Shown here: piece by piece, positions 3,827 through 25,964 of the stretch | Layout of the letters: each line of letters begins with the position of its first letter | Position numbering within the stretch: the first letter of the stretch is position 1 | Source: Crocosphaera subtropica ATCC 51142 | GTDB taxonomy: Bacteria > Cyanobacteriota > Cyanobacteriia > Cyanobacteriales > Microcystaceae | DNA: 32,000 nt | Direction of reading: 5' to 3' | Assembly: GCF_000017845.1 (NCBI RefSeq) | Contig: NC_010546.1 | Span: 990,001 to 1,022,000, forward strand | Notes under the pieces: generated by a model | Seen by the model: the letters and a program-made list of their open reading frames with translations, nothing else | Databases searched by the model: none | Told to the model about the DNA's origin: nothing | Translations under genes and position numbers: made by a program

Positions 3827-5053
<1,227 letters not shown>

Positions 5054-16269: not shown

Positions 16270-17532
16270 TTATCCCATCATATTAGTAAAGAAATCAATA
16301 GTTTCTTTTAAAACCATGACAAATTGATCAATTTCTTCATAACTATTATAAAAATATAAACTGACTCTCGCACTTCCTGAAGCATTAAATAAACGGTGTA
16401 AGGGTTGGGTACAATGATGTCCGGAACGAATAGCAACTCCTTCATGATCTAACAGCGTTGATAAGTCACTTCCGTGAATTCCTGGAATATTAAATGCAGC
16501 CAAAGCAGCCCTTCCTTTTCCTTCTTTTGTGGGTAGAGGTCCATAAATTCTCAGGTTAGGAACTTCCTCCAATTTACGAAACAAATAACCGGTTAATTCT
16601 TCTTCATAAGCATGAATTTTATCCATGCCAATATGGGTTAAATAATCAACCGCTGCCCCTAAAGCGATCGCTTCTCCAATAGCGGGGGTTCCGGCTTCAA
16701 ATTTATGGGGTAATTCTCCACAAGTAAAGCCATCAAAAAACACTTCATCAATCATTTCCCCACCCCCTAAAAAGGGAGGCATGGCTTCTAAAATTGATTG
16801 CTTTCCGTACAAGAAACCCACCCCCGATGGACCACACATTTTATGGCCACTGGCCACTAACCAATCACAGTCCATTTCCTGGACATTAATAGGCATATGG
16901 GGAACACTTTGACAAGCATCAATTAATACTTTAACTCCCTTTTCGTGGGCTAATTTAATGACTTCTTCAACAGGATTAATACAGCCTAATGTGTTAGAAA
17001 CATGAACGATAGTGACTAATTTAGTTTTATCCGATAACAAGGATTTGAAAGCGTCTACATTAAAGCTTTCGTTCTCAGTTAATGGCACATATTTAATCAC
17101 TGCCCCGGTTTGTTTCGCAATAATTTGCCAAGGAACTAAATTACTGTGATGTTCCATCACAGAGGTAATAATTTCATCCCCTGGTTGCAGATGATTTAAA
17201 CCCCAACTATAGGCAACCAAATTAATCGCTTCGGTGGCATTTCTGGTGAAAACAATTTCTTTTGAAGAAGCAGCATGAATAAACCTAGCTATCTTATCTC
17301 TTGCCCCTTCATAAGCTTCTGTTGCCCTCACGCTTAAAGTATGGGCCCCACGATGAACATTGGCATTATCTTTTTCATAGTAATGACTTAGGGCATCGAG
17401 TACCGCTACAGGTTTTTGAGACGTAGCAGCATTGTCTAAATAAACTAAAGGCTTACCATGAATTTCCTGATGCAAAATTGGGAAATCGTTGCGGACTTTT
17501 GAAGCTAGGGTTTTTTCTTGGATAGCAGTCAT
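16270..17532 (-). CDS. sufS: Cysteine desulfurase, SufS type (class V aminotransferase, group II)
   Basis: 420 aa. Contains FPIL...[11 protein letters not shown], the PLP lysine context SGHKMCGP, and the active-site region RSGHHCTQP. Confidence 0.95.
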
Positions 17533-17577
17533 AATGAAGTTAGAATTCAGAAGTTTTCTTATATTTAGAGGTCTAAT

Positions 17578-18927
17578 TTATGCTTCTGCGGTACGACAAA
17601 CCACACATTGAGTTAATCGTTGTTGCAAAGATTCCAGGGGAATCCGTTCTAAAATTTCAGTGGCAAAGGCATCAATTAAAAGATGACGGGCATCGGTTTC
17701 ATTTAAGCCCCGACTCTGTAAATAAAAGAGTTCATCGGCTTCTAATTGACTAATAGTTGCCCCGTGGGAACATTTAACATTATCTGCCGTAATTTGCAGT
17801 TCTGGTTTAGTATTAATTCGGGCTTTAGGTGACAGCAATAAATTACGGTTTAATTGGGTTGCATTGGTTAATTGTGCTGGTTTGGGAACAAAGATTTTGC
17901 CATTAAAAACCCCACGACCATTACCATCAATAATACACTTATGTAATTGATGGGTAATACCATAAGGATGATTCAGACAAACAGCAGTATGAGTATCCGC
18001 TAGTTGTTCATGATCAATCATGGTTAACCCATTAAGATGGGTTTCGGTTTGTGTTCCTTGTTGCCACATTTGTAGGGTATGACGAGATAGTTTTGCCCCT
18101 AAATTAACTTCGTTACAAGTGTAGTGACTATCTTGATTTTGGCTAATGGCACTCTTGCCAATGTGAAAGCTATCTCCTAACTCTCTTTGAATACGACTAT
18201 GATTAATCTGGGCATTATTATCTAACCAAATTTCTGTTACAGAATTGGTAAAATAAGGTTGATTCTTTTCATCATCTGAACAAGATTCTGTTACCGTGGC
18301 ATAATACTCAACAAATGATAAACTAGATCCAGTTTCTGCTATGACTAAAGTTCTCGGTTGTATTAAGCTTGGAGTCTCGTTACCAACGGTAAGAAAGAGC
18401 AATTGAATGGGGGTTTCAACTACAATATTTTTGTTAACCCAAATCACCGCAACATCCTTAAAACCGGCTGTATTTAAGGCGGTAAATGCGTCTTTTTCTC
18501 CTTCTTGTTTCCCTAAGTAATCAGCAATTTTATTGTTTTTTGGGTCGGGTAAATCACTTAGGTTACCCACATAGATGTCTTCAGGTAACTCAGATACATT
18601 AGACAACTCAGAACTATATTCCCCGTTAACGAAAACAAGGTAACTTTGTTGGGCTTCAGGTAAGATAAAATTATCAATAATACTTTGAGTAACTGTCTCA
18701 GTCTTCGCTGTTTGAAATTCTAATTGGTATAATTCCGATAAATCCGTAAACCGCCATTCTTCATCCTTTTTGCTAGGAAGGGTTAATTCTTGAACTTGAG
18801 AAACGGCATTTTTCCTTAAGGTTTGCATATACCCAGTGTCAATGATGGGAGCATTAGCTTGACACTGTTGTAATAAATTGGTTAGGCAGGTTTCTGGACT
18901 GGTTTTGTCGAGGGTTGGGTTATTCAT
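17578..18927 (-). CDS. sufD: Fe-S cluster assembly protein SufD
   Basis: 449 aa. Contains EEWRFTDLS near the N-terminus. The C-terminal beta-helix block is LLLSPKARINTKPELQITADNVKCSHGATISQLEADELFYLQSRGL. It lies 45 nt upstream of sufS. Confidence 0.92.
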   Translation of the reverse strand: MNNPTLDKTSPETCLTNLLQQCQANAPIIDTGYMQTLRKNAVSQVQELTLPSKKDEEWRFTDLSELYQLEFQTAKTETVTQSIIDNFILPEAQQSYLVFVNGEYSSELSNVSELPEDIYVGNLSDLPDPKNNKIADYLGKQEGEKDAFTALNTAGFKDVAVIWVNKNIVVETPIQLLFLTVGNETPSLIQPRTLVIAETGSSLSFVEYYATVTESCSDDEKNQPYFTNSVTEIWLDNNAQINHSRIQRELGDSFHIGKSAISQNQDSHYTCNEVNLGAKLSRHTLQMWQQGTQTETHLNGLTMIDHEQLADTHTAVCLNHPYGITHQLHKCIIDGNGRGVFNGKIFVPKPAQLTNATQLNRNLLLSPKARINTKPELQITADNVKCSHGATISQLEADELFYLQSRGLNETDARHLLIDAFATEILERIPLESLQQRLTQCVVCRTAEA

Positions 18928-21635: not shown

Positions 21636-22277
21636 ATGAATAGTTTAGCGTCAGTTGACATGAAAGCGATCGCACCTCAATTAATGACTTATCCCATTGT
21701 AGAAATCTTTCACTCCTTGCAAGGAGAAGGGACATGGACAGGGATGAGTGCTTTTTTCATTCGTTTAGCCGGGTGTGATGTTCATTGTCCTTGGTGTGAC
21801 CAAAAAGAATCATGGACAAGCAAAATATATCCCCAACAGTCTATTAAAACCTTAGCAGAAGCAGCCAAAGCAGCTAACCCTGCCATGGTGGTTATTACAG
21901 GGGGAGAACCCTTGATGTATGATTTATTCCCCCTAACCAAAGCATTAAAAAAGTTAGGGTTACGGGTTCATTTAGAAACTTCTGGGGCCTATCCCTTTAG
22001 TGGTCAGTTCGACTGGGTTACCTTGTCACCTAAACCGTTTAAAGTTCCCCATGAAAGTATCTATCCCCAGGTTAATGAATTAAAGGTTGTCATTACTAAT
22101 CAAGAGGACTTCCACTGGGCAGAAGAACAAGAGAAAAAGGTTCCTCCTCAAGCCCTTAAATACTTACAACCTGAATGGAATTATCCCGAAAGTCAATCTT
22201 TAATTTTTGATTATATTCGTAAGGCTCCTCAATGGCGTATGAGCTTACAAATTCATAAATTTTTAGGAGTTAGATAA
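21636..22277 (+). CDS. queE: 7-carboxy-7-deazaguanine synthase (radical SAM)
   Basis: 213 aa. Contains YPIVEIFHSLQGEG and the radical SAM cluster CDVHCPWCD. The true start may be an internal Met (21660 or 21684). Confidence 0.88.
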   Translation: MNSLASVDMKAIAPQLMTYPIVEIFHSLQGEGTWTGMSAFFIRLAGCDVHCPWCDQKESWTSKIYPQQSIKTLAEAAKAANPAMVVITGGEPLMYDLFPLTKALKKLGLRVHLETSGAYPFSGQFDWVTLSPKPFKVPHESIYPQVNELKVVITNQEDFHWAEEQEKKVPPQALKYLQPEWNYPESQSLIFDYIRKAPQWRMSLQIHKFLGVR

Positions 22278-22316
22278 GTACCTAAACATAATTAATTACA
22301 CAATAAGTGAATTGAC

Positions 22317-22421: not shown

Positions 22422-22566
22422 AGATTATCTGCAAAAATGGGATGCTCTCCTAAAGAAGTTGATTAGTATACATAAGATCAATTATCATTAAAGGGTAACC
22501 ATAGGGGTAATGTCCTGACAGGGGATCGACTGAACTTAATCCTGAACCACAAGGAAATAGAGAATT

Positions 22567-23100
22567 ATGAATCAAGCTTCTGTTGCAACAACTGATGAAA
22601 ACCAATTGCAAGTAGCTGAAGAAAAACTCATCCAATTTCTCAACGATCATAGTGAAATTGAGATGATTCTTCCCGTTATTCTAGGTATCTTTATTACCAG
22701 TCGCTTGCAATTGAGGGGAGCCAACGCACTGATTGTTAATTTGGCCATTGCTAGTATTTCTCGTCAAATCTTTACTAACCTTAAAAACATAACCCCTACA
22801 GTACCTGTTAGTAGCTCTAACGGAGTCAAAACAGCAAAAGCTCAAGAAGATAGCCTATATACTATCGTTCACTCTGTTCCTGGAAGAATTCGCATTAAAA
22901 TTCCTAGACTCAGCCAAGATATAGAATTTTGTGAGATTTTATCCCAATTATTAGCAGAAGATGATCATGTTATTGAGGCTCGTATTAACCGAGCAGCCGC
23001 CTCAGTGGTTATTCATTATGAAGCTCAAGGATTATCGGATGTTGAATTAGGCTTGCGCTTATTAAATCTTATGAACAGAGCAGAAGAAGCTGTGTCATGA
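22567..23100 (+). CDS. Membrane protein with a C-terminal CxxC-less HMA-like domain (PGRxRxK motif)
   Basis: 177 aa with hydrophobic segments at about residues 33-68. Residues 100-152 align without gaps to residues 7-59 of the downstream ATPase, with about 24 of 53 identical by hand. It lies 40 nt upstream of the ATPase. Confidence 0.72.
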   Translation: MNQASVATTDENQLQVAEEKLIQFLNDHSEIEMILPVILGIFITSRLQLRGANALIVNLAIASISRQIFTNLKNITPTVPVSSSNGVKTAKAQEDSLYTIVHSVPGRIRIKIPRLSQDIEFCEILSQLLAEDDHVIEARINRAAASVVIHYEAQGLSDVELGLRLLNLMNRAEEAVS

Positions 23101-23140: not shown

Positions 23141-25255
23141 ATGAAGACTATTCCCCAGATTATCCATCATATACCTGGAAGAGTCAGATTTCGTATCCAT
23201 CGTTTAAGCTATGATCGGCGTTTTGCTCTGCGTCTAAAACAACTTTTAAAAGCAGCATATCCGATTCAAACTGTTCGCTTAAATGATTGGGCTGCTTGTG
23301 TTGTCATTGCTTATCATGCTAAAAAAGAGTTCGATATTGAGACATATATCATTCATCTTATAGAAAAAGCAGAAAGTTATCATTATCTAATTGCAGAAAA
23401 TAAAGCCAATAATCCCCTAGAAGAATGGTCAAGTTTAACTCTCCCTAGTTTAGCTACTCTACTAGGGTTTGGAGCCAGCAAATTACCCATTCCTGGATTA
23501 AAACTAATCGCTAGTTTAATGTTACTAAAGGCTGCTTTCCCTGTGGTCAAAAGAGCTTATGAAAGTTTGTCCTCTGAACAAAAAATAAATATCGATTGTT
23601 TAGATAGCTTAGCTTTACTATTTAGCGGTTTACAAGGACAAATGGTCACCCCGGCCTTAGTCATTACCCTACACGAATTAGGAGATATTATTCGGGAAAA
23701 AACCGCTCGTTCCACAGAAATAAAAACCAGCAATTTATTGGATACCATTGGTCATTTTGCTTGGGTTGAACAAGATAACCAAATTATCCATGTTGAAAGT
23801 CATCGGGTAGAAATTGGGGATACGGTGGTCGTTTATCCAGGAGAAAGTATTCCCGTAGACGGCAAAGTCATCAAAGGAAAAGCTATCATTGATCAACAAC
23901 AATTAACAGGGGAATCTATGCCCATTGTGGCAGAAAAAGACAGCTATGTTTATGCTTCTACCCTATTAAGATCCGGGGAAATTCGCATTAAATGTGAGAA
24001 AGTCGCTTATGAAACCCGTGCAGCAGCCAGTATCGAACTCCTAGACAAAGCCCCCGTCCATGACACCCGTATGGCAAACTATGCAGCCAATTTAGCCGAA
24101 CAATTAATGATGCCATCCCTATGCTTAGCTGGCATGATTTTAATCATTACGAAAGACCCCCAACGGGTGGCTTCTATTCTGACCTTAGATTTTGTCACAG
24201 GAATTCGGGTTTCTATTCCTACCGCCTTTTTAGGGGCATTAAACCACACCACTCGCCACGGGATTTTAGTCAGAAGTGGTCGGACGTTGGAACTGTTATC
24301 AGAAATTGATACCATTGTCTTCGATAAAACCGGAACCCTAACGGAAGGAAATATTAAAGTTGTGGGGGTAGAAACCGTCAGAGAAACATTAGATCCTAGA
24401 ACCCTTGTTCAGTTAGCAGCATCGGCTGAACAACGCATTACTCACCCCGTAGCCGAAGCGATCGCCCATTATGCCCAACAGGAAAACATTGATATTTTAC
24501 CCCGTGACCATTGGGACTATGAGGTGGGGTTAGGGATGGTGGCCACCATCATAGGAAAAACCATATTAGTGGGGAGTAAAAAGTTATTAATCAGTAAGGG
24601 AGTAATTATCCACGAAACCGAGAAAATGCAAGAAAAATCCGCATTATCTCCGATTTATGTCGCTTGTAATGGAGAATTTCAGGGCATTATTTACTATACT
24701 GATCCCCTCCGTCCCCAAAGTGCTAAATTAATCCATCACTTACAACATCAGTATGATATTGAAGTTCATTTGCTCACAGGAGACAATCAAACACGGGCGA
24801 CAGAAGTAGGTAAACAGTTACAGATTCCCCTGTCTAACGTCCATGCAGAGGCGTTTCCCGAAGATAAAGCTAGAATTGTCAGTGGCTTACATCATCGGGG
24901 TAAAACCGTCGCTTTTGTGGGGGACGGCCTGAACGACTCGGTAGCCTTAGCCTATGCAGATGTGTCCATCTCCTTTGAAAATGGGTCTGATATTGCTAGA
25001 GACACCGCCGATGTGGTGTTAATGAATAATGACCTAACGGATTTGTTAGAGGCGATCGCCATTGCCAAAGAAACCAAAGCCTTAATTAATCAAAATACCC
25101 TGATGGTGGTTGCCCCCAACTTAGCAGCCTTAGGGTTAGCCACCACCGTTGGCCTTAACCCTTTATTAGCTACTCTGGTTCATAATGGAACGGCCATCGT
25201 TGCCGGACTGAATAGTTTACGGCCTCTTGTTCAACATCATCTAGAAACCAATTAA
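23141..25255 (+). CDS. P-type ATPase, P1B-like architecture, atypical (no CPx-type transmembrane metal motif)
   Basis: 704 aa. Motifs: TGES (256-259), DKTGTLT (395-401), P1B-style HP dipeptide (ITHPVAEAI), TGDN, GDGLND. The N-terminal domain is HMA-like but lacks CxxC. FVT (nt 24191-24199) sits where CPC/SPC is expected. Confidence 0.92.
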   Translation: MKTIPQIIHHIPGRVRFRIHRLSYDRRFALRLKQLLKAAYPIQTVRLNDWAACVVIAYHAKKEFDIETYIIHLIEKAESYHYLIAENKANNPLEEWSSLTLPSLATLLGFGASKLPIPGLKLIASLMLLKAAFPVVKRAYESLSSEQKINIDCLDSLALLFSGLQGQMVTPALVITLHELGDIIREKTARSTEIKTSNLLDTIGHFAWVEQDNQIIHVESHRVEIGDTVVVYPGESIPVDGKVIKGKAIIDQQQLTGESMPIVAEKDSYVYASTLLRSGEIRIKCEKVAYETRAAASIELLDKAPVHDTRMANYAANLAEQLMMPSLCLAGMILIITKDPQRVASILTLDFVTGIRVSIPTAFLGALNHTTRHGILVRSGRTLELLSEIDTIVFDKTGTLTEGNIKVVGVETVRETLDPRTLVQLAASAEQRITHPVAEAIAHYAQQENIDILPRDHWDYEVGLGMVATIIGKTILVGSKKLLISKGVIIHETEKMQEKSALSPIYVACNGEFQGIIYYTDPLRPQSAKLIHHLQHQYDIEVHLLTGDNQTRATEVGKQLQIPLSNVHAEAFPEDKARIVSGLHHRGKTVAFVGDGLNDSVALAYADVSISFENGSDIARDTADVVLMNNDLTDLLEAIAIAKETKALINQNTLMVVAPNLAALGLATTVGLNPLLATLVHNGTAIVAGLNSLRPLVQHHLETN

Positions 25256-25288: not shown

Positions 25289-25516
25289 ATGTCATTGATT
25301 CACTGGGATAAATCTGTTTTCAGCTTACACCTCAAAGAAATCATTGAAGATCATCATCAAAAAGGTGATTCGAGTGGAGTTGTTGGTTTAGGGGCAATTT
25401 TACTGGGAACCATTGCCCTTCCGGCTGCTGCTAAATATAGTCGTCCCATTCTGAAATCTGTGATTAAAACAGGAATCGCTTTGTCCTACGAACTGTCTGA
25501 AAAAAAGGGTAAATAA
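25289..25516 (+). CDS. Small membrane protein, paralog of the 25653-25964 ORF (DUF5132-like by recollection)
   Basis: 75 aa. AGGAG lies 10 nt upstream, and the gene starts 33 nt after the ATPase stop. Contains GLGAILLG...P...RPILKSVIKTGIAL. Confidence 0.65.
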   Translation: MSLIHWDKSVFSLHLKEIIEDHHQKGDSSGVVGLGAILLGTIALPAAAKYSRPILKSVIKTGIALSYELSEKKGK

Positions 25517-25652: not shown

Positions 25653-25964
25653 CTAATCTTCAATGCCATTAAGACCCTCTGATTTAGCCGTGGGAAGGGC
25701 ATTTCTTTGAGCTTGTTCGGCAATGACTTCTGCCTTGGCTTCTGCAACAATATCTCCCATGACTTCCCCTGCTTCGGCTAAGGTTCCCTTGGTTTTTTGG
25801 TATAAAATTACCCCAGTTTTGACCGTTGCTTTGGCTACAGGTTTTAAGAGGGGAAGAATAACGGGGGTTAAGACTAAAGCCCCAACTCCAATAGCAAGGG
25901 TACGATTAGGATTGTCCTGATAAGCTTTTTTTAAGGATTCTAACATTTTATATTCCTCATTCAT
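25653..25964 (-). CDS. Small membrane protein with an amphipathic Ala/Glu-rich tail (DUF5132-like by recollection)
   Basis: 103 aa. Contains IGVGALVLTPVILPLLKPVAKATVKTGVILY followed by AEAGEVMGDIVAEAKAEVIAEQAQ. It shares the [RK]P[IV]xK[SA]x[IV]KTG[IV]xL block with the 25289 ORF. Confidence 0.7.
   Translation of the reverse strand: MNEEYKMLESLKKAYQDNPNRTLAIGVGALVLTPVILPLLKPVAKATVKTGVILYQKTKGTLAEAGEVMGDIVAEAKAEVIAEQAQRNALPTAKSEGLNGIED

Follow-up and report, generated by a model that had tools for sequence, protein, structure and literature searches.

A cysteine-free P1B-type ATPase of Crocosphaera subtropica with a probable non-thiol ion site, a FezB-sister ancestry and orthologs linked to iron genes

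Main

Which ion does a P1B-type ATPase move when the cysteines of its membrane site have been replaced? The question is raised by a 32,000-nucleotide stretch of the Crocosphaera subtropica ATCC 51142 genome (NC_010546.1, positions 990,001–1,022,000 of the forward strand; hereafter the window, with positions counted from its first letter), which contains a gene for a P1B-fold ATPase (the pump; Table 1) whose unusual M4 and M6 helices had been picked out in a sequence-only reading. We characterized the pump through profile searches, alignments, structure prediction, phylogeny and comparison of gene neighbourhoods. The gene very probably encodes a working pump with a non-thiol ion site. As to its role, we see an even chance that this is a functional pump on the P1B scaffold, with an oxygen/nitrogen ligand site and from a lineage sister to FezB (the ATPase of the ferrosome system), that most likely moves Fe2+.

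Catalytic core and predicted fold

Profile scans place the pump in the P1B family: it scores 489 bits against TIGR01525 (cut-off, 346) and likewise exceeds the cut-off of TIGR01512, and its Pfam matches are E1-E2_ATPase and Hydrolase. In the same profile scan it fell below the cut-offs of the Cu model, the ZntA equivalog and the CopA equivalog. The sequence-only reading had described the catalytic machinery as intact, and a motif scan located all five motifs of a P1B pump (TGES at residue 256, DKTGT at 395, HP at 435, TGDN at 546 and GDGLND at 594).

An AlphaFold model built on an 85-sequence alignment (predicted local distance difference test (pLDDT), 85; predicted template modelling score (pTM), 0.70) contains eight helices (residues 92–114, 120–146, 151–165, 169–202, 312–337, 340–372, 633–669 and 674–691). 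Their layout fits that of P1B pumps, with MA, MB and M1–M6 and without long C-terminal helices. The best Foldseek matches were ZntA (4UMW), CopA (4BBJ/3RFU) and sCoaT (7QBZ), and ATP7B was also matched. A first run on a 16-sequence alignment had reached a pLDDT of 64, with M4 below 50, and that model was discarded for the 85-sequence run.

A replaced ion site

In M4, the A-CPC-A.G pattern is replaced by DFVTG.R, and the PT of the canonical ATPT is retained. Three independent checks agree on the register, in which F351-V352-T353 (nucleotides 24191–24199) occupies the CPC position of P1B pumps. A phmmer search of the PDB put 'ltldFVTgirvsiPTaf' opposite 'vvaCPCafglatPTal' of Archaeoglobus fulgidus CopA, and the match to Legionella pneumophila CopA was in the same register. 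A MAFFT alignment with three CPC paralogs from the same genome and 150 family representatives set F-V-T opposite C-P-C, P659-N660 opposite Y-N, and H681 opposite the Met of MxxSS. An M5–M6 fragment, with E-values that were weak owing to the short query and a register that agrees with the full-length phmmer matches, aligned HNGTA with HEGST of sCoaT (7QBZ) and H681 with D714 of ZntA (4UMV).

These alignments bear out the sequence-only reading, which had put FVT at the CPx triplet, found the proline of that triplet missing and located HNGT in the last transmembrane helix. Its numbering of T353 and N682 stands, but the Asp before FVT is D350, not D349. A shift of register that would move a Cys/His/Pro-containing motif into the M4 position had been named as the danger to this assignment, and under every shifted register the CPx position held no Cys, His or Pro. 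The pump contains none of the cysteine-bearing M4 tripeptides of P1B pumps (CPx/xPC, SCA, CSC or PCP), and the phmmer, MAFFT and M5–M6 alignments revealed no Cys, Met or Pro at the canonical ligand positions. Two of its five cysteines lie in predicted membrane helices (C153, in NIDCLD, and C328, in M3), neither of them at a canonical ligand position.

The replacement residues are strongly conserved. Among 16 orthologs (58–86% identity; mean column identity, 67%) from genera that include Crocosphaera, Microcystis, Okeania, Trichodesmium, Lyngbya, Spirulina, Geminocystis, Picosynechococcus and Synechocystis, D350, F351, V352, T353, G354, R356, N660, H681, N682 and G683 are invariant, and the strings ILTLDFVTG(I/V)RVSxPTAFLGAL and HNG(T/S) as well as N652 and P659 are unchanged. 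The site residues are mostly retained across 85 family members down to 39% identity. In a wide alignment of 151 sequences (the query and 150 representatives from 50% clustering), D350 is present in 137, T353 in 84 (with Cys instead in 40), G354 in 110, Arg or Lys at position 356 in 131 and N682 in 117; of the 136 sequences whose alignment extends to M5, 122 have N660. Because D350, T353, N660, H681 and N682 are invariant in the orthologs, the site appears to have been re-made rather than lost, and a non-thiophilic substrate is a reasonable expectation.

A lineage sister to FezB

A HMMER search of 1.8 billion cluster representatives recovered 150 relatives of the pump, down to 28% identity, most of which carry an N-terminal PGRxRxR, D-[FY]-x-[T/C]-[G/A]-x-[R/K] in M4, Asn in M5 and [H/N/S]-N-G in M6. 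In a tree rooted with the CPC paralogs of the genome, the pump falls inside a Cys-free clade (77 tips; support, 0.97) with the pattern D-[FY]-x-T-G plus [H/N/S]-N-G and a cysteine-less 'PGRxRxR' CoBaHMA N-terminus. The sister of this clade, with DYSCA in M4 and HN in M6 (26 tips; support, 0.998; joint node, 0.997), is P1B-6/FezB; the defining marks of FezB in the ferrosome paper are D[Y/F]SCA, HNxxT and, at the N-terminus, an 'R-rich' motif (Grant et al., bioRxiv 10.1101/2020.01.10.902569; later in Nature). The hallmark of P1B-6 has been given as SCA plus N-X-H-N-X-(S/T) in a 2026 review (PMC13460109).

The pump has the M5/M6 part of this hallmark, N660 followed by H681-N682-G683-T684, with an N-X20-HN spacing that matches a Dorea FezB-like protein, and its R-rich (RxRxR) N-terminus, HHIPGRVRFRIH, has no CxxC. 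D[Y/F]SCA is absent from its M4: DFVTG keeps the Asp and the aromatic residue, and SCA is replaced. FVT thus reads as the local spelling of D-F-x-T-G, and HNGT as the M6 hallmark of P1B-6, in which Asn is normal. The sequence-only reading had aligned HNGT with the HEGxT of Zn/Co pumps, which holds against 7QBZ, and had seen in it a Glu-to-Asn change, which gives way to the P1B-6/FezB reading as HNx(S/T).

The pump and FezB, which belong to sister clades, have a good deal in common: the P1B fold with a cysteine-less, R-rich and probably CoBaHMA-type N-terminus, an Asp and an aromatic residue at the M4 kink (DF in the pump and DY in FezB), a basic residue (Arg or Lys) six positions past that Asp, the M5 Asn, HNx(S/T) in M6, and a neighbouring gene for an R-rich HMA membrane protein. 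They differ in that the pump has VTG in M4 where FezB has SCA, so that the only Cys of the FezB site is Thr in the pump, and in that the pump lies outside the FezB clade. The small partners of the pump are DUF5132 proteins, whereas those of FezB are DUF6110 proteins, which adjoin FezB in Firmicutes and Collinsella. In FezC the hydrophobic part follows the domain, whereas in the CoBaHMA partner of the pump it precedes it. The hosts of the pump are oxygenic phototrophs, in which no granules are known, and those of FezB anaerobes.

The motifs have been seen before. Supplementary Table 1 of the ferrosome preprint contains the row 'Cyanothece sp. BH68, ATCC 51142; cce_1010; DFVTGIR; HNGTA; HHIPGRVRFRIH', coloured apart from FezB in one group with orthologs such as Ava_0992 (Anabaena variabilis) and Cyan10605_3086 and with relatives in myxobacteria, rhizobia and methanotrophs (10.1101/2020.01.10.902569). 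All three strings are identical to those of the pump, which we judge on this basis to be cce_1010 of Cyanothece sp. ATCC 51142. The motifs were thus already tabulated, in a non-FezB group and with no function or experiment attached, and the main texts of the literature searched name neither cce_1010, nor its neighbours, nor six ortholog locus tags. What we add is a module of four genes and a link to Feo that is specific to His681, both described below.

The family is patchily distributed in the phylum. Of 401 genomes sampled, 48 contain a member (E ≤ 1e-100) and only about 21 an ortholog of at least 55% identity; the one other genome sampled from the same genus had no family member. All matches of this survey but one have an intact frame. 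The exception, in a genome of the same order (G008:C1:3171907-3173355), covers residues 6–480 only and carries an internal TAG; it is probably a pseudogene, which fits the patchy distribution. A profile search for related loci with a FezB alignment gave about 12 FezB-like loci out of 80, with generic P-type motifs saturating.

A compact four-gene module

The pump, a CoBaHMA membrane protein and two single-pass proteins of the DUF5132 type form a compact four-gene module (Table 1). The N-terminal domain of the pump contains H9 and PGRVRFR (R14, R16 and R18), lacks CxxC, and scores 28 bits against Pfam HMA_2 (PF19991), just under the cut-off of 30; it is modelled as beta0-beta1-alpha-beta-beta-alpha with a pLDDT of 80–94. 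R14 is present in 112 and R16 in 110 of the 151 aligned sequences, of which 29 and 27, respectively, have a gap there. The CoBaHMA domain (Pfam HMA_2) was described by the Benzerara and Callebaut groups, who proposed that it binds anionic lipids. Upstream of the pump, the small partner protein has two short hydrophobic segments in its N-terminal half and a cysteine-less CoBaHMA/HMA_2 domain with HSVPGRIRIKIPRL in its C-terminal half. Downstream, the 75-amino-acid protein has a Gly-rich transmembrane segment and, after it, a basic helix, and matches the DUF5132 alignment in hhalign (probability, 96%; E, 2.7e-9), with 12.5 bits from Pfam alone.

Similar genes recur elsewhere in the genome. On the second chromosome (C2:404000-418000), two P2A (Ca-type) ATPases flank a DUF5132 gene, and one of the two ATPases (1,000 amino acids) has an N-terminal CoBaHMA fusion; a second CoBaHMA-fused P2A ATPase (998 amino acids) is encoded at 2.667 Mb (C1:2664000-2672000), and a trio of thioredoxin, CoBaHMA and DUF5132 genes at 2.447 Mb (C1:2444000-2451000).

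Table 1. Features of the pump and its module in the window
Feature	Positions	Strand	Basis
Small partner protein, 177 aa (CoBaHMA/HMA_2)	22567..23100	+	Pfam HMA_2, 38.6 bits (cut-off, 30)
P1B-fold P-type ATPase (the pump), 704 aa	23141..25255	+	Open reading frame; TIGR01525, Pfam, AlphaFold, Foldseek
Probable N-terminal CoBaHMA ('R-rich') domain of the pump, residues ~4–80	23150..23380	+	Pfam HMA_2, AlphaFold
TGES of the actuator domain (T256–S259)	23906..23917	+	Motif scan; invariant in the 16-ortholog alignment
M4 ion-site segment LDFVTGIRVSIPTAFLGAL, residues 349–367	24185..24241	+	phmmer/PDB, MAFFT, ortholog alignment, motif scan
DKTGT phosphorylation motif (D395, phosphorylated Asp)	24323..24337	+	Invariant in the 16-ortholog and 85-member alignments
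N660 in M5 (PN dipeptide, opposite the Asn of CopA YN)	25118..25120	+	MAFFT; invariant in the 16-ortholog and 85-member alignments
M6 motif H681-N682-G683-T684, fitting the P1B-6 hallmark HNx(S/T)	25181..25192	+	Alignments and motif scan
Small membrane protein, 75 aa, divergent DUF5132 paralog	25289..25516	+	hhalign
DUF5132 protein (PF17195), 103 aa, convergent with the pump operon	25653..25964	-	Pfam, 69.4 bits (cut-off, 25)

Linkage of the ortholog group to iron genes

We compared the neighbourhoods of 23 ortholog loci in other genomes, taking about 5–8 kb of flank per side where the contig allowed and counting the window separately. A homolog of the small CoBaHMA protein lies within 8 kb at 16 of the 23 loci (17 of 24 with the window), usually directly upstream of the ATPase; a DUF5132 gene accompanies 17 (18 of 24) and a homolog of the 75-amino-acid type 15 (16 of 24). 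FeoB is encoded within 8 kb at 16 of the 23 loci, and at least seven GTDB families are represented among the Feo-linked ones. FeoA and/or FeoC join FeoB at several of them; in Microcystis the order is feoA-feoB-feoC-CoBaHMA-pump-DUF5132, all on one strand. A DUF2202-like ferritin-type protein is encoded at 5 of the 23. In the window all three partners are present, and FeoB and a DUF2202-like gene are both absent. Such company is a further likeness to FezB: fez clusters also contain R-rich HMA proteins, FeoA-domain proteins and DUF2202 ferritin-like proteins (10.1101/2020.01.10.902569), and at a betaproteobacterial FezB locus we found an R-rich protein, a DUF2202-like protein, FezB and FeoA/B/C.

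A contrast set comprised 20 loci of paralogs or more distant relatives (43–51% identity to the query), mostly from paralogous subfamilies. No Feo or DUF2202 gene lies within 8 kb at any of the 20, even though CoBaHMA and DUF5132 neighbours persist at most NNG-type loci. Nineteen have DFATG, DLCTG, DLGTG or similar in M4 and, where the motif is readable, Asn or Ser at position 681; the remaining locus (L161) encodes a more distant His-type pump. With Feo at 16 of 23 ortholog loci and at 0 of 20 contrast loci, the iron-gene context therefore tracks with the M6 His. His681, which FezB also has, is a rarity within the Cys-free clade (2 of 77 tips); the contig of the sole other His681 representative (P0128) is short upstream of it.

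The contrast loci L159–L178 hold two or more paralogous Cys-free subfamilies, one with DFATG/DLCTG plus NNGS and one with DLGTG plus NNGT, with proteins of up to about 1,100 amino acids. These subfamilies often come with two or three extra CoBaHMA proteins and DUF5132, and several genomes have two or three pumps adjacent to each other. These pumps may handle a different substrate from the His681 group.

Which substrate?

The oxygen/nitrogen ligand chemistry of the site suits Fe2+ or a different divalent ion of hard or borderline character, and suits neither Cu+ nor Cd2+. Among these ions Fe2+ is our leading candidate, with chances that we regard as evenly balanced. Several points weigh against it. 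Members of the Cys-free clade are known from sequence alone, and the transport of Fe2+ by FezB was itself concluded from genetics rather than from direct measurement (10.1101/2020.01.10.902569). The genomes behind the Feo linkage counts are related to one another and do not amount to independent statistical samples. In its own genome the module does not stand beside feo: FeoB homologs are at C1:27.5 kb and C1:578 kb, and a DUF2202-like gene is at C1:3.51 Mb, away from the module. The clustering of the ligands in three dimensions rests on alignment to solved pumps. As CoBaHMA and DUF5132 also accompany P2A ATPases of the same genome, they appear to be general accessories of P-type pumps and are uninformative on the substrate. 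A comparison by hhalign did not show DUF5132 to be homologous to the DUF6110 (FezA-like) proteins beside FezB (probability, 4%), the two being alike in architecture alone.

In the alternative that survives best, the pump would move a different divalent cation, again hard or borderline (Mn2+, Ca2+, Mg2+, Co2+ or Zn2+), and the Feo neighbourhood would reflect shared regulation or a general balance of divalent metals; we hold this to be unlikely, although a serious contender. Nothing in the ligand set of Asp, Thr, Asn, His, Asn and Thr is unique to Fe2+, the module in the window has no feo neighbour, and modules of CoBaHMA and DUF5132 flank Ca-type P2A ATPases in the same genome. Known pumps of two other kinds resemble it in part. 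The P1B-4 pumps (CoaT, CzcP and PfeT; sCoaT, 7QBZ) have, in HEGxT, a His and a Gly that align with H681-x-G, and their family includes the Fe2+ exporter PfeT. They differ from the pump in having SPC in M4 and Glu after the His, where the pump has FVT and Asn, and the pump has eight predicted helices including MA and MB and a probable CoBaHMA N-terminus. CtpC of Mycobacterium tuberculosis, which with PacL1 forms one of the 'effluxosome' pairs of that species, resembles the pump in its P1B-6-like M5/M6, in an N-terminal domain without CxxC and in its dependence on a small single-pass membrane partner encoded alongside (PMC9374683; PMC13460109). CtpC differs in retaining CPC in M4, and it is tied to the export of Zn (and Mn), which favours another cation for the pump as well. 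A Collinsella FezA-like DUF6110 protein scored 24 bits against DUF1490, the family of PacL, which is below the cut-off. Against another cation stand the confinement of the Feo linkage to the His681 ortholog group, the ferritin-like DUF2202 gene beside the pump at five loci, and the genetic tie of FezB, the closest characterized relative, to iron granules.

Much less probable is a non-transporting or decaying ATPase, in which the ion site has been lost and ATP is perhaps still hydrolysed by what is now a regulator or a relic. The absence of CPC, of the M4 proline and of the N-terminal CxxC would suit such a protein, as would the patchy occurrence in the phylum and the lack of a member in the sampled genome of the same genus. 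However, the polar residues of M4, M5 and M6 are invariant where the mean column identity is 67%, conservation of these positions reaches across a deep clade, the frame is intact in all phylum-survey matches but the one with the internal TAG, and the partner genes are conserved. Conservation of the replacement residues in the orthologs, which the sequence-only reading had proposed to survey, argues against decay. Of the two roles offered in that reading, a different transported species is reasonable, given a missing CPx and conserved polar residues; a non-transport role finds no support, with the polar set under strong constraint and M4 interrupted at residues 349–350 in the AlphaFold model despite having no proline.

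The genome also encodes three canonical copper-type paralogs (GMxCxxC, CPCALGLATPT, YN and MxxSS). These P1B-1 Cu+ pumps of the CopA/CtaA/PacS type share with the pump the fold, the catalytic motifs, the PT after M4 and the M5 Asn, and differ in their N-terminal HMA domain with GMxCxxC, CPC, YN and MxxSS, all of which are replaced in the pump. An ordinary Cu/Zn/Cd exporter, as source annotations ('Cu2+-exporting ATPase' and 'cadmium-translocating') and the TIGR01525 and TIGR01512 scores would have it, is highly improbable for a protein that lacks Cys, Met and Pro at all canonical ligand positions, falls short of the Cu-model, ZntA and CopA equivalog cut-offs and shares its genome with three CPC pumps.

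A possible mechanism

The motifs, conservation, fold, phylogeny and gene linkage reported above are observations; which ion is moved, in which direction and across which membrane, and how the partners interact, are inferred in the following scheme. A cytosolic cation would enter between M1/M2 and M4, with the conserved carboxylates E179 and D182 (M2) and D152 and D155 (M1) as candidates for the entry path. It would be held at the unwound M4 by the D350 carboxylate and the T353 hydroxyl together with N660 of M5 and H681, N682 and T684 of M6, and would be released on the far side once D395 is phosphorylated. In ZntA, K693 is the counter-charge to D714; by analogy, R356 (Arg or Lys in 131 of the 151 sequences) may act as a built-in counter-charge to D350. 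Fe2+ would in this way be taken from the cytosol across the plasma membrane, the thylakoid membrane or the membrane of a storage vesicle. The CoBaHMA and DUF5132 partners probably have scaffold, targeting or regulatory roles and, by analogy with PacL–CtpC, most likely position, stabilize or regulate the pump.

Upstream sequences and nearby genes

A 27-nucleotide motif, AAGTACCTAAACATAATTAATTACACA, lies directly after the stop codon of queE and upstream of the module (window 22276–22302), and a Microcystis copy is found at positions 4326–4352 of locus L013. The motif (AAGTACCTA..CA.AATTAATTACACA) has seven copies in the genome, three of them exact, against none in the control, and some of the copies are followed, about 100 nucleotides further downstream, by an imperfect inverted one. 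We rejected it as an operator: its dispersal and the inverted partners of some copies indicate the end of a repeat resembling a miniature inverted-repeat transposable element, shared with Microcystis, rather than evidence of regulation.

AT-rich sequences that resemble Fur or iron boxes were spotted by eye in the window (TCAATTATCATT, 22478–22492) and upstream in two other loci (GTGATAAAATTTCTCAATTATC in L063, about 60 nucleotides upstream of the CoBaHMA gene, and TTGATAATCTTTGTCAA in L055). A scan for promoters and terminators gave chance-level results. On the minus strand (16270–18927), some 4 kb upstream of the module, the window encodes SufS (a class-V aminotransferase) and a SufB/D-family protein of Fe–S cluster assembly.

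Implications

For the family, the copper and cadmium exporter labels that these genes carry in databases are almost certainly wrong. Feo tracks with His rather than Asn at a single M6 position, which offers an uncomplicated rule of ion selectivity that can be tested in an uncharacterized branch of P1B pumps, and the presence of CoBaHMA and DUF5132 beside P-type ATPases of two classes suggests that they form an accessory system of general use to such pumps.

If the pump does move Fe2+, it would fill a gap in what is known of iron handling by cyanobacteria, whether in export, in storage or in delivery to an internal compartment, and would extend ferrosome-type machinery from anaerobes to oxygenic phototrophs. 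A bolder proposal, which we advance as a speculation with the balance of probability well against it, is that many cyanobacteria carry a four-gene fez-like module, often fused to a feoABC operon, that loads Fe2+ into a membrane-bounded store or the thylakoid lumen, with a single M6 residue (His681 as opposed to Asn or Ser) separating iron-type pumps from paralogs for other cations. Were this true, the module would be the counterpart of the ferrosome system in oxygenic phototrophs, and diazotrophs such as Cyanothece/Crocosphaera, which shuttle iron between their day and night enzymes, would have in it an iron-handling route.

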